64,000 nucleotides of DNA. It comes from Octopus vulgaris (taxonomy: Eukaryota). The DNA lies in the NCBI GenBank assembly GCA_951406725.2, contig OX597814.1, positions 186,124,001 to 186,188,000 of the forward strand, in the 5' to 3' direction. The position numbers and the translations under genes were made by a program. Each line of letters opens with the position of its first letter. Position 1 is the first letter of the stretch. This document shows, piece after piece, positions 17,625 to 64,000 of this stretch. The notes beneath the pieces were generated by a model. The model was not told where the DNA came from. It made no database searches and was given only the letters and a program-made list of their open reading frames with translations.

Positions 17625-18222
17625 GGTTTCAAATTTTAGCACATGGCCAGCAATTTCAGGAGTAGGTACAAAGTCGATTACATTGACTCCAAAAGTATGA
17701 AAAGTAAAGCCAATCCCAGTGGCATTTGGAATCAGAACATAAAGACAAAAGAAACACCACTAAGAATTTTTCCTGGTACTGTAACAAGTCTTATTTCTTT
17801 ACTGCCCACAAAGGGTTACACACAGAGGGGACAAACAAGGACAGACAAACGGATTAAGTCAATTATATCGACTCCAGTGCATAACTGGTACTTAATTTAT
17901 CGACCCCGAAAGGATGATAGGCAAAGTTGACCTTGGTAGAATTTGAACTCAGAACGTAAAGACAGACGAAATACCTATTTCTTTACTACCTACAAGGGGC
18001 TAAACACTGAGAGAACAAACAAGGACAGACAAATGGATTAAGTCGATTATATCGACCCCAGTGCGTAACTGGTACTTAATTTATCAACCCCGAAAGGATG
18101 ATAGGCAAAGTTGACCTTGGTGGAATTTGAACTCAGAACGTAAAGACAGACAAAATGCCGGTAAGCATTTCGCCTGGTGTGCTAATGTTTCTGCCAGCTC
18201 GCCGACTGCCAGCTCAACACCT
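17625..18222 (-). mobile_element. Nested/tandem trio of family C SINEs
   Basis: Two young bodies (17790-17975 and 17976-18205) inside an older short variant. Confidence 0.85.
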
Positions 18223-19599: not shown

Positions 19600-20636
19600 T
19601 TAACCCCTTCAGATTCAAATTATTCTGTCAAGTGTAAAGCTTATTTATTCACATTATTTTGGATTATCATCATCATCATCATCATCGTTTAACATCCGTT
19701 TTCCATGCCAGCATGGCTTGGACGGTTTGACTGGGGTCTGGGAAGCCAGGAGGCTACACCAGGCTCCAGTCTGATCTGGCAGTGTTTCTACAGCTGGATG
19801 CCCTTCCTAATGCCAACCACTCCGTGAGTGTAGAGGGTACTTTTTACGTGCCACCGGCACAGGGGCCAGAGGAGGCTGGCAATGGCCACGATCAGTTGGT
19901 GCTTTTTATGTACCACCAGCACAGAAGCCAGTCAAGGTGGTGCTCGCATCAGCCACGTTCGGATCGTGCTCTTTACGTGCCACCAGCATGGGTATCACAG
20001 CTACAATTTCCACTTGATTTTTATTTTGATGTTGATGTACTTGACTCAATAGGTTTCCTCAAGCACATCAGGTTGCCCTACGAGCCAAGGTAAGCACAGC
20101 AGGCCGTCCTGCAATTCAAGGTACTTTGGATGGGCTGGGGCTGCTGTGTGAAACTGGTGCAGGAAACAGCAATGAACTCACATCATTTGTCAGGTCTCAG
20201 CATATCTCCAGAGATCTCAGTCTTTCGTCATTGCCTCTGTGAGGCCCAACGTTCGAAGGTCATGCTTGACCACCTCATCCCATGTCTTCCTGGGTCTACC
20301 TCTACCCTGGATTCCTTCAGCTGTTTGGGAGTGGCACTTGTTCACACATCTCTCCTCATCTATCCGTAGTACATGACAATACCAGCGTAAATGTCTCTCT
20401 TGCACACCACATCCGATGCTTCTTATGTCCAGCATTTCTCTCAGGGCACTTACACTCTGTTGTGTGTGCACACTGAATTGGGTATTATCTCATAGCTTTG
20501 AGATTTCAATGGTGTGATTGTTTATTTTTAGAATGGCATTGTAGGGTAGGTGTGAGAGGCCAGATATGGCCAGTTTAAACATAAAACCAGTAGAATGTTC
20601 AGGCCAGATACAACTTGTTTATATGCTAAAAGCTAA
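19600..20636. mobile_element. Family G piggyBac-type (TTAA) MITE interrupted by an RTE insertion
   Basis: TTAACCCCTT start and ATGCTAAAAGCTAA end. The two halves match the intact copy at 54929-55157. Confidence 0.7.
19665..20472 (-). mobile_element. 5'-truncated RTE LINE (ORF C-terminus plus family A 3' UTR)
   Basis: ORF 20217-20471 reads LRWYCHVLRIDEER..GRGRPRKTWDEVVKHDL, the RTE C-terminal signature. It is followed by family A sequence and (GAT)n. Confidence 0.92.
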
Positions 20637-30471: not shown

Positions 30472-31068
30472 AAAAAGGGCCTCTCTCTCAGAGTGAAAAG
30501 CAGACTGTATAATACCTGTGTGCTACATGGTAGTGACGCATGGGCTGTGACTGTTGAGGACATGCATAGGCTTGTAAGAAATGAAGCTAATATGTTCTGT
30601 TAGATGTGTAATATCTGTGTGCATGCACAACAGAGTATAAGCACCCTGAAAGAAAACTTGGACAAAAAATGCATGAGATGTGGTGTGCAAGAGAGATGAC
30701 TGTATTGGTATGGTCATGTGATGTGTATGGATGAGGATAGCTGTGTGAAGAAGTGTCACACTCTAACAGTGGAGGGAACTTGTGGAAGAGGCAGACCCAG
30801 TAAGACATAGGATGAGATGGTGAAGCATGATCTTCGAATGTTGGGCCTCACAGAGATAATGATAAGCAACCGAGACCTTTGGAGATATGCTGTGCTTGAG
30901 AAGACCTGTCAAGCCAAGTGAGATCGTAGTCATGGCCATTGCTATAATTGACCCGTTAAACACACCCCTCAATCGTTGGGCGATATGCTGTGCTTGTAAA
31001 GACCTGTCGGACTAAGTGAAATCATAGGCATGGCCAATGCCAGTGCCATCTTACTGGCACATAAAAAG
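30472..31068 (+). mobile_element. Decayed RTE LINE ORF C-terminus plus start of family A 3' UTR
   Basis: KGLSLRVKSRLYNTCVLHGSDAW...LYWYGHVMCMDEDS..GRGRPSKT*DEMVKHDL..RDLWRYAVLEK with in-frame stops. Same family as 20217-20471. Confidence 0.9.
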
Positions 31069-40038: not shown

Positions 40039-40636
40039 TCATCATCATCATCATCATCATTGTTTAACGTCTGCTTTCCATGCTAGCATGGGTTGGACGA
40101 TTTGACTGAGGACTGGCAAACCAGATGGCTGCACCAGGCTCCAATTTTGATCTGGCAGAGTTTCTACAGCTGGATGCCCTTCCTAACACCAACCACTCCA
40201 AGAGTGTAGTGGGTGCTTTTACATGCTGCCAGCACAAGGGCCAATCAGGCGGTACTGGCAACAGCCATGCTCAAATGGTGTTTTTTACATGCCACCTGCA
40301 CAGAAGCTAGTCCAGCGGCACTGGCAACGACCTCGGTTGAATGCTTTTTCACATGCCACCGGAACAAGTGCCAGTAAGGTGACGCTGGTAACGATCACTC
40401 TCAAATGGTGCTTTTTATGTGCCACTGGCACGGGAGCCAGTTAGCTGCTCTGGCAACAATCACACTCAGATGGTGCTCTTAGCGCTCCACTAGCATGGAT
40501 GCCAGTCATTGAATTTTGATTTCGATTTCACTTGCCTCAACAGGTCTTCACAAGCAGAGTTTAGTGTCCAATGAAGGAAAGGTACACGTAAGTGGGCTAG
40601 TTACACACCTGGCATAGGCCACGAGGTTATGGTCTC
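40039..40636 (-). mobile_element. Family A RTE 3' UTR (4-module variant)
   Basis: (ATC)n, core, modules and GAAGACC/CAAGTGA unit. Confidence 0.88.
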
Positions 40637-41815: not shown

Positions 41816-42301
41816 ATCATCATCATCATCATTGAATGTCCGCTTTCCATGCTCGCATGGGTTGGACGATTTGACTGAGGACTGGTGAACCAGATGGCTG
41901 CACCAGGCTCCAATCTGATCTGGCAGACTTTCTACAGCTGGATGCTCTTCCTAACACCAACCACTCCAAGAGTGTAGTAGGTGCTTTTACATGCCACCTG
42001 CACGAGGGCCAGTCAGGTAGTACTGGCAACAGCCATGCTCAAATGGTACTTTTTATGTGCCACCTGCACTGGAGCCAGTCTAGAGGCACTGGCAACGACC
42101 TCACTCAAATGTTTTTTCATGTGCCACCAGCACAAGTGCCAGTAAGGAAATGCAGGTAACAATCACACTCGAATGGTACTTTTTACATGCCACCGACACG
42201 GAGGCTATTTTGTTGCTCTGGCAACGATCACGCTCATATGGTACTCATAGCGCTCCACTAGCACAGATGCCAGTCATCGAATTTGATTTCGATTTCGATT
42301 T
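41816..42301 (-). mobile_element. Family A RTE 3' end nested in a family G MITE (41710-42422)
   Basis: MITE halves flank the insertion. Confidence 0.85.
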
Positions 42302-43867: not shown

Positions 43868-44224
43868 TCAAAAATCAATGGAAATTGCAGTTGTGATACC
43901 AGTGCCGGTGGCATGTAAAAGAACCATCCAAACGTGGCCGTTGCCAGTGCCACCTCGACTGACCTCTGTGCCAGTGGCACATAAAAAGCACCAACTGATC
44001 GTGGCTGTTGCCAGCCTCACCTGGCACCTGTGCCGGTGGCATGTAAAAAGCACCCTCTACACTCATGGAGTAGTTGGCGTTAGGAAGGGCATCCAGCTGT
44101 AGAAACACTACCAGATCAGACTGGGCCTGGTGCAGCCTCTTGGCTTCCCAGACCCCAGTTGAACCATCCAACCCATGCTAGCATGGAAAGTGGACGTTAA
44201 ACAATGATAATGATGATGATGATG
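43868..44224 (+). mobile_element. Family A RTE 3' end (3-module variant)
   Basis: Three GTGCCRGTGGCAYRTAAAA modules, core and (GAT)n. Confidence 0.88.
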
Positions 44225-59548: not shown

Positions 59549-60414
59549 AATACACTCATAGTTATCTTCTTTTAATCATGATAAGAATTTCCGTTACATA
59601 GATACAAGGCATATGGTAATTATTCAAATATTCTTTCACTACTACCATGCAATAAATGCTACATTCATGGTTTATAGAGTTTTCTAAATATTTTCATTCC
59701 TGCATTTTTAAAATAAATTAGCAGAACACAATTATTTTTCTCTAATATTTCACATGATAGAAATTAAGAGAAAGAATGAAATATATGAAAACTGAAGCAT
59801 CCTAAAAGAGGGCGTGAGAAACAATGGGTGGAATATTTGGTGGAAATAAAGGGTGTAAAATTAAGATAGAACAGATAGATGACAAGATGAATAATCAGGA
59901 AGAGAAGAGTGAAAACTAAGGTAAAACAGAAAACAGGTTAGTGGAGGAAGGCAAGAAAAACATTGTGTTAAAGAAATATGAAGACAAACTTGCATGAATT
60001 ATTCAGTTATATTTCTGCTAAAGATTATTCTCTTTCTTCTGTACTCTTCTGTCTTCTTTTTTTTCTTTTTTTATATTTCAATAGTTTTCAGAAATGGCCA
60101 TTAAATCAATAATTTGTTGCACTTAATTTGAAGCAACCTTTCAAAAAGGTATTTGTTTTGTATTAATATGCATTTCCAAACAAGCAAACTATTATGCATT
60201 TGCAAACCATAATAAATTTAGCAATCATTTTGCACTTTCAATATTTTCCTTGTCTTATTGATCGGCGATACTTTTAGATAAGATAAATACCATCAAAGAC
60301 AAGCGCGAAAGACAAGGGGAGCTGTTTTATGGGCAAAATATTACAATAAATAAAATTGATTGCTTCTTTGATGATGTAAGAAAAAAAAATTAAGATGATC
60401 CAACAATTCCTACA

Positions 60415-60790
60415 GATAAGAAGTTTGATTCCCAACCATTTGGTCTTGGGTTCAATCCCATTGCACAGCACCTTGGTCAAGTATCTTCTACTATAGCCTT
60501 GGACCAACCAAAGCCTTGTGAGTGAATTTGGTAGACTGAAACTGAAAGGAGACCATCGTACATATATGTATATATGTGTATCTGTGTGTCTTGGTGTTTG
60601 GCCACCACCACCACATGATAGCCAGTGTTGGTTTGTTTATATCCCTGTAACATAGTGCTTTGGCAAAAGAGACCAATAGAATAAATACTAGGATTAGAAA
60701 GGAAAAGAGATACTGGGGTTAATTTCTTTGATTAAACCTTCAAGGCAGTAACCCAGCATGGCCACATCCAGTGACTGAAACAAAATAAAA
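60415..60790 (+). mobile_element. Family B SINE, diverged
   Basis: Colinear with other copies. Confidence 0.85.
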
Positions 60791-60859
60791 AATATCAATG
60801 GATTTTTCCATAGTCCATATCTATGCATAGATAGATAGATACACGTACATAAAGATATA

Positions 60860-60980
60860 TATATATGTATATCATATGTGCATATATATATATATATCAT
60901 ATGTGCATATATATATATATATATCATATGTGCATATATATATATATATATCATATGTGCATATATATATATATATATAT
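60860..60980. repeat. Minisatellite (TA)n-TCATATGTGC x4
   Basis: Seen directly. Confidence 0.9.
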
Positions 60981-61086
60981 ATATTGTATAGAGGGCATTA
61001 TTACACATAAATGCCTCACACTAGGAGGGACAAAGTCATTACTAGTGTGAGGCATTTATGTGTAATAATGCCCTCTATACAATATA
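60980..61086. repeat. Perfect 45-bp inverted repeat with 17-nt spacer
   Basis: Arms 60980-61024 and 61042-61086. Confidence 0.95.
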
Positions 61087-61225
61087 GATATAATTAATTT
61101 GTTCAAAAGAAAAAAATTATTTTCGGATTCTTTTCTTTTATGAGGTTTTCACGCTAGCTACCCGATAATTTCTTGTTAAGATCCCTTATTAAGAGATTAT
61201 CCTTAATTGTTAAACTTATATATAT

Positions 61226-61459
61226 ATCATCATCATCATCGTTTAACGTCCGTTTTCTGCGCTAGCACGGGTTGGACGGTTTGACCGGGGTCTGGGAAGC
61301 CAGAGGCCTCTCCAGGCTCCAGTCTGATCTGGCAGAGTTTCTACGGCTGGATGCCCTTCCTAACGCCAACCACTCCGCGAGTGGATTGGGTGCTTTTTAC
61401 GTGCCACCTGCACAGGGGCCGGGGGGTTCGGCATCGGTCACGATCGGTTCGAGCTTTTT
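61226..61459 (-). mobile_element. Family A RTE 3' end, CpG-rich variant
   Basis: (ATC)n GTTTAACGTCCG, core and about 1.5 modules. Homology stops at GCTTTTT (61459). Confidence 0.9.
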
Positions 61460-61856
61460 CTAGAGTTGAGTTGGGGGGGGTCTAGCTGAGAAAGGTTCCA
61501 CCAGTGGAAAGAGAGGGAGAGATAGAGGGGGGTGCAGGTAATAAAGGGAAGCACCAGTGGGGAAGGTTGGGTAAGGAGGAACGATGACAAGGAAAGGGTT
61601 GGTGCAGAAGAAATAAAAACGTAGGATATCACGAGACAGGGAGGGGGACTGGAAGGAGATGGTCGGATTGAGGCAGTGCCAGATTCTAAACAGGAGGTAA
61701 CATAAGATCAGTGGGGCAGTTAATGAGCTGCGGTACTAGCAGCTTGACTTGGTGGGGGGAAGGGGTAGTACACAGTGAAAGCATATGTGAAGGAGGGGTA
61801 GGAGGGAGAGACACACGTGGGGGAGGAGGAGGGAGGAGGGCATATCCGGTGTAGAT

Positions 61857-61988
61857 GGTGAGAAGTGTTCACCGGTATTGGTGGTGGGGGTGAGAAGTGT
61901 TCACCGGCATTGGTGGTGGGGGTGAGAAGTGTTCACCGGTATTGGTGGTGGAGGTGAGAAGTGTTCACCGGTATTGGTGGTGGGGGTG
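61857..61988. repeat. 32-bp G-rich VNTR, 4 copies
   Basis: GGTGAGAAGTGTTCACCGGTATTGGTGGTGGG at 61857, 61889, 61921 and 61953. Confidence 0.97.
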
Positions 61989-62006
61989 GAAGGGCGGAGG
62001 CACCGC

Positions 62007-64000
62007 CGAATGGCGGAAAAGATGGAAATTAAGGATTGAAGGATTAAAGGGTTAAATTTCGTAGAGAAAAGATAGGAAAAACGAAGCAGTTATTGTACGA
62101 GTACAGACGTTTAACAATAGTAACGAATGAGGTACGAAAGATAATGGGATAAAATGTTTTTGCAACTTGCTGCGAATATGAAAGCCGGAAGCCGCTGTTG
62201 GAGAAGAAAGGAAGTCTAAAAATTGGGAACCGTAAATCGTAATGGCGACTAAGAAGAAGAAGAAGAAGAAGAAGACGAATGGCGGAAAAGATGGAAATTA
62301 AGGATTGAAGGATTAAAGGGTTAAATTTCGTAGAGAAAAGATAGGAAAAACGAAGCAGTTATTGTACGAGTACAGACGTTTAACAATAGTAACGAATGAG
62401 GTACGAAAGATAATGGGATAAAATGTTTTTGCAACTTGCTGCGAATATGAAAGCCGGAAGCCGCTGTTGAAGAAAGGAAGTCTAAAAATTGGGAACCGTA
62501 AATCGTAATGGCGACTAAGAAGAAGAAGAAAAGAAGAAGACGAATGGCGGAAAAAGATGGAAATTAAGGATTGAAGGATTAAAGGGTTAAATTTCGTAGA
62601 GAAAGATAGAGAGAAAAAGAAGCAGTTATTGTACGAGTACAGACGTTTAACAATAGTAACGAATGAGGTACGAAAGATAATGGGATAAAATGTTTTTGCA
62701 ACTTGCTGCGAATATGAAAAGCCGGAAGCCGCTGTTGGAGAAGAAAGGAAGTCTAAAAATTGGGAACCGTAAATCGTAATGGCGACTAAGAAGAAGAAGA
62801 AAAGAAGAAGACGAATGGCGGAAAAAGATGGAAATTAAGGATTGAAGGATTAAAGGGTTAAATTTCGTAGAGAAAAGATAGGAAAAACGAAGCAGTTATT
62901 GTACGAGTACAGACGTTTAACAATAGTAACGAATGAGGTACGAAAGATAATGGGATAAAATGTTTTTGCAACTTGCTGCGAATATGAAAGCCGGAAGCCG
63001 CTGTTGGAGAAGAAAGGAAGTCTAAAAATTGGGAACCGTAAATCGTAATGGCGACTAAGAAGAAGAAGAAGAAGAAGAAGACGAATGGCGGAAAAGATGG
63101 AAATTAAGGATTGAAGGATTAAAGGGTTAAATTTCGTAGAGAAAAGATAGGAAAAACGAAGCAGTTATTGTACGAGTACAGACGTTTAACAATAGTAACG
63201 AATGAGGTACGAAAGATAATGGGATAAAATGTTTTTGCAACTTGCTGCGAATATGAAAGCCGGAAGCCGCTGTTGAAGAAAGGAAGTCTAAAAATTGGGA
63301 ACCGTAAATCGTAATGGCGACTAAGAAGAAGAAGAAAAGAAGAAGACGAATGGCGGAAAAGATGGAAATTAAGGATTGAAGGATTAAAGGGTTAAATTTC
63401 GTAGAGAAAAGATAGGAAAAACGAAGCAGTTATTGTACGAGTACAGACGTTTAACAATAGTAACGAATGAGGTACGAAAGATAATGGGATAAAATGTTTT
63501 TGCAACTTGCTGCGAATATGAAAGCCGGAAGCCGCTGTTGGAGAAGAAAGGAAGTCTAAAAATTGGGAACCGTAAATCGTAATGGCGACTAAGAAGAAGA
63601 AGAAGAAGAAGAAGAGCGAATGGCGGAAAAATGGAAATTAAGGATTGAAGGATTAAAGGGTTAAATTTCGTAGAGAAAAGATAGGAAAAACGAAGCAGTT
63701 ATTGTACGAGTACAGACGTTTAACAATAGTAACGAATGAGGTACGAAAGATAATGGGATAAAATGTTTTTGCAACTTGCTGCGAATATGAAAGCCGGAAG
63801 CCGCTGTTGGAGAAGAAAGGAAGTCTAAAAATTGGGAACCGTAAATCGTAATGGCGACTAAGAAGAAGAAGAAGAAGAAAGAAGAAGACGAATGGCGGAA
63901 AAGATGGAAAGGATTAAAGGATTAAAGGGTTAAATTTCGTAGAGAAAAGATAGGAAAAACGAAGCAGTTATTGTACGAGTACAGACGTTTAACAATAGTA
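62007..64000. repeat. ~270-bp tandem array (7 full units plus a partial one, open at the window end)
   Basis: Units start CGAATGGCGG at 62007, 62276, 62541, 62812, 63082, 63347, 63617 and 63889. Each ends in (AAG)n and they are nearly identical. Confidence 0.98.

Follow-up and report, generated by a model that had tools for sequence, protein, structure and literature searches.

A monomer array, VNTR and tether joined to an RTE-type 3' end in Octopus vulgaris: a candidate non-autonomous, RTE-mobilised composite

Can a tandem array of satellite-like monomers travel as the front part of a retroelement that is inserted by the enzyme of another? The question is raised by one end of a 64-kb stretch of Octopus vulgaris DNA (hereafter the window; contig OX597814.1, positions 186,124,001 to 186,188,000 of the forward strand), in which a monomer array, a GC linker, a VNTR and a tether lead, on the minus strand, into the 3' end of an RTE-type LINE. 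We give a probability of roughly 0.55 to the reading of this block as a bipartite, non-autonomous LINE that is mobilised by RTE and whose monomer front resembles that of mouse L1. A first-pass annotation of the locus had proposed an RTE-mobilised, non-autonomous composite comparable to primate SVA; a repeated junction, an RTE 3'UTR end and the lack of coding capacity favour the first part of that proposal, while the likeness to SVA holds for layout only. The features to which the argument refers are as follows, with the evidence on which each is based.

61226-64000, minus strand: whole block, comprising (GAT)n tail, RTE end, tether, VNTR, linker and monomers; the array reaches the window end
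61226-61240, minus strand: (GAT)n tail, the 3' end of the element (sequence; equal tail on other family A copies)
61226-61459, minus strand: family A end, the final 234 bp of the 3'UTR of an RTE-type LINE, a distinct CpG-intact subtype (alignment with other copies)
61458-61459, minus strand: 2-nt overlap between RTE end and tether family, the crossover (contigs of runs X1 and X3)
61460-61856, minus strand: tether, 397 bp, pyrimidine-rich, multi-copy in two organisms (composition; public-run contigs)
61857-61992, minus strand: VNTR, 4.3 x 32 bp (tandem repeat detection, TRF)
61993-62006, minus strand: GC linker, 14 nt (TRF boundaries; sequence)
62007-64000, minus strand: tandem array of 7.4 monomers of 265-272 bp (269-bp unit), 97% matches, cut by the window end (TRF; alignment)
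61035-61219, no strand assigned: a multi-copy repeat in its own right, broken off at the tail (the target), outside the element (contig depth and continuation)
19672-20489, minus strand: 5'-truncated RTE reference copy, running from family A into a reverse-transcriptase C-terminus (frame; protein search)

Layout, composition and coding capacity

Most of the architecture originally described for this locus is recovered. The monomers, said to be near-identical, about 270 bp long and at least seven in number, form the homogenised head-to-tail array by which a satellite is recognised; the four 32-bp repeats correspond to the VNTR, the tether of about 400 bp to the 397 bp listed above, and the (TA)n reported beside the (GAT)n tail to a 6-nt (AT) run at 61220-61225 that directly adjoins it. 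The linker comes to the 18 nt once claimed for it if counted from 61989, but is shorter by TRF boundaries. The block had also been called far richer in both GC and CpG than the rest of the window, which is true of CpG (observed/expected 1.37 in the block and 1.97 in the monomers, against 0.35 in the remainder), but as regards GC does not extend to the monomers (37.1%, against 35.7% in the rest); GC values of 53-58% are found solely in the A end, the tether (53%) and the VNTR (57%).

The reported lack of a substantial ORF is upheld for the part inside the window, as the longest stop-to-stop frame (173 aa) lies in the pyrimidine-rich monomers, no Pfam match reaches the cut-off, and the tether has stops in all three frames; the two of these frames that were searched for protein relatives gave no match, which is weak evidence. 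Rfam yielded no match at gathering score in 60900-62900, and its 42 matches at E <= 10, all below that score, are mostly hairpins in the TA-rich flank and include no ribozyme family. The hammerhead motif CTGANGA is absent from both strands of the block. ARAGORN predicted no tRNA gene in 60000-64000, and no B-box pattern occurs in the block, whose true 5' end lies beyond the window. Folding z-scores were -0.61 for the monomer and -1.42 for the A end, and metagenome scans with a tether pattern and with a monomer pattern returned zero loci each.

Family A and its junction with the tether

The window holds 13 copies of family A, namely the candidate's and 12 others at E <= 2e-12. One of these, the reference copy at 19672-20489, contains a frame at 20217-20489 for which protein comparison gave 1645 relatives (E <= 0.001), RVT_1 being present in four of the six matches scanned. 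Because this copy runs from family A into such a reverse-transcriptase (RT) frame, family A is, judged from its sequence, the 3'UTR of an RT-encoding LINE, which we place in the RTE clade by a C-terminal motif and not by a tree. Comparison of the RT fragment with longer proteins produced no match, and its ESM Atlas match (0.94), with recognition below threshold, is weak. In two close relatives of the fragment, P0003 and P0032, the RT domain is separated from the C-terminus by a PHD finger. A second relic of the same C-terminus, 77% identical to 20198-20476 and followed by a truncated 3'UTR, is found at 30614-30920 on the plus strand. The family A 3'UTR contains tandem sub-repeats of 65-67 bp in variable number (40370-40506, 41985-42194 and 43898-44054), and at least two subfamilies occur within the window; the candidate's A end terminates at 61459, inside the first ~65-bp sub-repeat.

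The candidate's A end is 78-86% identical to nine other copies, and contains 18 CpG where these have 2-11. It differs from the majority of its five nearest copies at 27 of 231 positions, and that a now-active RTE recognises an end standing 12% off the nearby RTE majority is assumed. GC-biased conversion was considered as the source of this divergence and dropped as unneeded, because many of the 13 AT>GC differences restore CpG, which fits a young copy set against decayed ones.

Public sequencing runs bear on the junction itself. Twenty of the 24 runs listed, from nine studies and two organisms (A and B), contain 0.46 or more of the sequence words in 61226-62280, and four runs (X1, X2, X3 and X19, the last from organism B), contigs throughout, were compared with 60986-62290 at 95% likeness. 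Two outcomes had been named in advance as fatal to the composite, a tether/A junction that is unique and a mis-join at 61459; neither occurred. Among the pieces listed, the junction is bridged in two of the four runs, which are two samples from two studies: X3 record 28 spans it with 31 nt on the short side at a depth of 16.5, and X2 record 18 with 30 nt, one under the bridging rule, at a depth of 324. It is not among the 32 pieces listed for X1 or X19. The X2 value is 11-22 times that of seven single contigs used as single-copy proxies (14.5-29.3), an order of magnitude that refers to depth and not to copy number. In the main tether contigs, depth is 205-376 in X2, 815-1872 in X1 (three records), 356-566 in X19 (three records) and 16.5-29 in X3; the comparison is restricted to single contigs, as summed bin depths are inflated by overlapping contigs, and so gives no copy numbers. 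The tether continues 29 nt into the VNTR in X2 record 22 and X3 record 30, and a VNTR unit 2 nt longer is also present in X2 and X19. Differences between the window and the listed contigs, at 61428 and 61526, amount to about 0.5% over the A end and tether, so that the copies must be very alike. Joined A end and tether are a multi-copy unit, and one shared other flank, that is, a cluster, fits the depth data equally well as many flanks.

The first-pass annotation had missed that the tether, present once in the window, is part of a more abundant family in which no RTE end stands at this point. A deeper, diverged relative replaces 61481-61552 (with 35 other letters in X19) and diverges behind 61586, and the two types are separated by this 72-versus-35-nt block and further changes. 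Its depth is 154 in X3, where it also has other letters before 61458, and 1168 in X19. This tether-related family, which occurs in both organisms and may be the autonomous partner, exceeds the candidate type in depth by a factor of about 2 in X19 and of 5-9 in X3. From a 23-nt side and bin arithmetic (65.42 vs 65.4), we infer that the X3 features of the relative belong to one contig. Ten letters of its continuation before 61458 are visible, and a 13-nt motif for this continuation matches the window five times with 4.1 expected, which is chance level. X1 record 2 and X3 record 27 follow the candidate's A end to 61458 and then proceed in other letters, presumably the rest of the RTE 3'UTR. It is likely that both parents are thus in view, in the form of RTE ends that leave at 61458 and of the tether relative, with a 2-nt overlap between them. 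Linker, VNTR and tether together measure 547 bp, against a 5'UTR of about 600 nt given for an O. vulgaris RTE in the available part of PMC9115989; none of six window motifs was found in four of the eight supplements of that paper. X19 also has a joint (depth 193) that links 62085 with 61507; we discounted it, since purine-rich sequence probably matched there by chance.

The insertion site and the monomer array

On the tail side, the flank repeat at 61057-61219 has a depth of 652 in X2 (record 17) and 33.8 in X3; X3 record 25 carries on beyond 61219 for 98 letters of other sequence, and a loose end lies behind the same position in X19. Here, then, the tail end cuts into another repeat, which is what target-primed reverse transcription would produce. 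Since the flank contig and the tether are of similar depth in X3, and the former runs past 61219 elsewhere, amplification did not involve the unit and this flank jointly. Beyond the VNTR stand monomers and not the resumed flank repeat, which argues that the monomers arrived with the insertion. Target site duplications (TSDs) span 7-15 bp according to the available part of PMC6007223; no TSD-like match occurs inside 61460-64000, the far end of the block lying past the window, and the identical search was blank for nine of ten old copies. Further out, at 60974-61092 and beside a (TA)n run, lies a palindrome with 58-bp arms (93% complementary) and a 3-nt loop. Its right arm and 61093-61219 are multi-copy, with the other copies diverging behind 61044 in X2 and X19, and it possibly represents the collapsed ends of a TIR element.

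Head-to-tail monomer joins are found in X1, X3 and X19, and the monomers are tandem in both organisms sampled. The single-contig depth of monomers relative to tether is 38-58 in X2, 8-14 in X3 and 3-5 in X19; most organism A monomers may sit in arrays unconnected with the RTE-tailed unit, and part of the monomer depth may belong to the deeper tether relative or to free arrays. All window monomers have C at position 62098. This letter accounts for about 1% of the depth summed over X1, and the contigs listed for X2, X3 and X19 have T there, a pattern of local expansion or homogenisation, or else of individual difference. Within the array, homopolymer runs show small indels, a hint of errors in a long-read consensus. 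The monomer contigs of X3 and X19 continue into (AAG)n, and in two contigs of X1 a monomer breaks off at 62112 and unrelated sequence follows, as it would where another array ends or where an array has received an insertion. Run X3 was guessed to be RNA; as its part-to-part depths resemble those of the DNA runs, it was set aside as evidence of transcription. The linker/monomer join, which a 5-bp GC stem straddles at 62003-62016, is known from this assembly alone: it is bridged by no listed piece, and by bin arithmetic depth over 61998-62006 is nil in X3 and little in X19; as contigs are apt to drop rare branches and the records are filtered, this gap speaks neither for nor against the join.

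Each full monomer carries two CGCCAT motifs (YY1-like), one CCGGAAG (Ets-like) and one (TTC)n run. Among 2000 shuffles, two CGCCAT arose in 0.4%, CCGGAAG in 1.8% and both in none (0/2000), figures that apply to short motifs picked post hoc; the other 61 kb of the window contain three CGCCAT and one CCGGAAG. Eight letters of the monomer are those of the YY1 motif by which mouse L1 Tf monomers are driven, in the same orientation, with the flank differing after the eighth (PMC11602158, as far as available).

Competing readings and comparison with known systems

Under the RTE-mobilised reading, Pol II would start in the monomers, which by analogy with mouse L1 would serve as tandem internal promoter units, and would read VNTR and tether through to the (GAT)n tail; an RTE protein supplied in trans would then bind the RTE-derived end and insert the copy, and the monomer array might afterwards change length in place through local expansion or homogenisation. 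The element would have originated in a join at the 2-nt overlap. That join may reflect an internal deletion of one RTE, whose 5'UTR consisted of monomers, VNTR and tether, or the capture of a tail by another element, and the two routes are about equally open. A bolder version, which we put forward only tentatively, holds that an RTE-mobilised element independently evolved YY1/Ets promoter monomers like those of mouse L1, and that its insertions seed CpG-island-like arrays which expand and homogenise into locus-specific satellites; on this version the element would act as a self-promoting satellite seeder driven by RTE.

Much of the same evidence can be read without an RNA step. An RTE fragment might have inserted in one unit of a tandem cluster (a macrosatellite, or a spacer of rDNA, histone or snRNA type) and spread by unequal exchange, in which case the locus would be an array edge or orphon. 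Copies that are near-identical mutually and yet 12% off nearby RTE copies are as expected under concerted evolution; the intact CpG and the tandem monomers of both organisms are in keeping with a cluster, and the depth of the deeper tether relative fits a repeated gene spacer. However, the unit stops exactly at its tail inside a repeat of another kind, and nothing left over from the tether family follows. The two tether types are set apart by their exchanged block and more, unlike a homogenised array, and no Rfam family was matched at gathering score in the region searched. We regard the cluster as unlikely, though as the strongest of the rivals to mobilisation by RTE.

Less probable again, in our view, is a mobile core confined to VNTR, tether and RTE end (~770 bp), next to which the 270-bp array would be an independent satellite placed there by insertion, rearrangement or an assembly join. 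Such a division is favoured by the depth of the monomers, which in organism A greatly exceeds that of the tether, by a ratio that varies about tenfold across runs, by a GC content of 37% in the monomers against 53% in the tether, and by the homopolymer indels of the array. Against it, a plain insertion predicts the rest of the flank repeat next, where monomers stand instead; the join coincides with a boundary in the monomer's own phase and lies in a GC stem formed with the linker (a post hoc observation); and VNTR and tether would be left without a tRNA head or B box as promoter. With 13 family A copies per 64 kb, chance neighbours are common, and the junction could in principle be a one-off, be it a mis-join at 61459 or a 5'-truncated RTE that happened to insert where satellite or unique DNA begins; its bridging at multi-copy depth in two studies makes this highly improbable.

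If dispersal together with the monomers is true, the block offers a traceable case in which a LINE enzyme gives rise to a satellite and spreads it, and shows that LINE promoters made of tandem monomers arose a second time, outside rodents. Unmethylated promoter-like arrays would also be placed at new loci of a CpG-depleted genome. With near-identical copies numbering only in the tens, one could directly type array lengths and insertions that are polymorphic. Should the 5' parent turn out to be the RTE's own 5'UTR, the element would count as an ordinary bipartite RTE, and the monomer promoter alone would be new.

Among known systems, SVA elements end in poly(A), depend on L1 and include an Alu-like part and SINE-R. 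The block shares with primate SVA and LAVA a non-autonomous composite build with a GC-rich VNTR, a likeness of layout only; its own VNTR has 4.3 units, Alu-like part and SINE-R are missing, and a (GAT)n tail behind an RTE-type 3'UTR, instead of poly(A), rules out membership of the SVA family. Retrozymes carry a hammerhead ribozyme within tandem monomers, and were likewise rejected as a class, there being no hammerhead motif in the block and no ribozyme family among the Rfam matches, and the monomer having a folding z-score of -0.61.

The nearest class is provided by the bipartite non-autonomous LINEs, for which RTE is one of four source clades (Kojima, PMC5786205, available part). Like Bov-A, RTESINE1/2, WALLSI3 and MAR4_MD, the bipartite RTE LINEs described there, the block lacks an ORF, ends in the extreme RTE 3' end with a microsatellite tail, and has its 5' part joined directly to this end; Pol II transcription and mobilisation in trans would be expected for both. 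The named elements, by contrast, are short, and the available part of that paper makes no mention of tandem monomers or a VNTR. We conclude that the block would work like a bipartite non-autonomous RTE more nearly than like SVA and may belong to that class, with a 5' part that may or may not come from the same RTE. With the 5'UTR of mouse L1 (Tf, A and Gf; PMC11602158, available part) it has in common tandem CpG-rich monomers followed by a non-monomeric tether. In mouse, however, the monomers average 2.3-3.7 per locus and lead into ORF1 and ORF2 of an autonomous L1 (same source), whereas here at least 7.4 of them lead, via a VNTR, into an RTE tail; we point to a likeness of layout and do not claim homology.

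Dispersal of tandem repeats by transposable elements is itself on record. In the cases treated in PMC6947457 (available part), as would hold here, a tandem unit in or beside an element was moved and then locally amplified, although those cases concern L1 transduction of flanks or repeats internal to the element, and RTE is absent from the main text. Our literature search found no paper on an element of the present kind, and the unit may already be contained in an automated repeat library for O. vulgaris, deposited at Zenodo and cited in the available part of PMC13282606. Within the same animal group, Ceph-SINEs, the tRNA-headed SINEs of cephalopods with RTE parts (PMC5786205, available part), resemble the block in being non-autonomous and RTE-derived. 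A SINE with a tRNA, 5S or 7SL head was nevertheless rejected as a class for the block, in which neither a tRNA head, nor a B box, nor an Rfam match at gathering score was found over the region searched. Elsewhere in the window, at 17792-18156, a common SINE-like repeat is present as two tandem copies of 184 bp.
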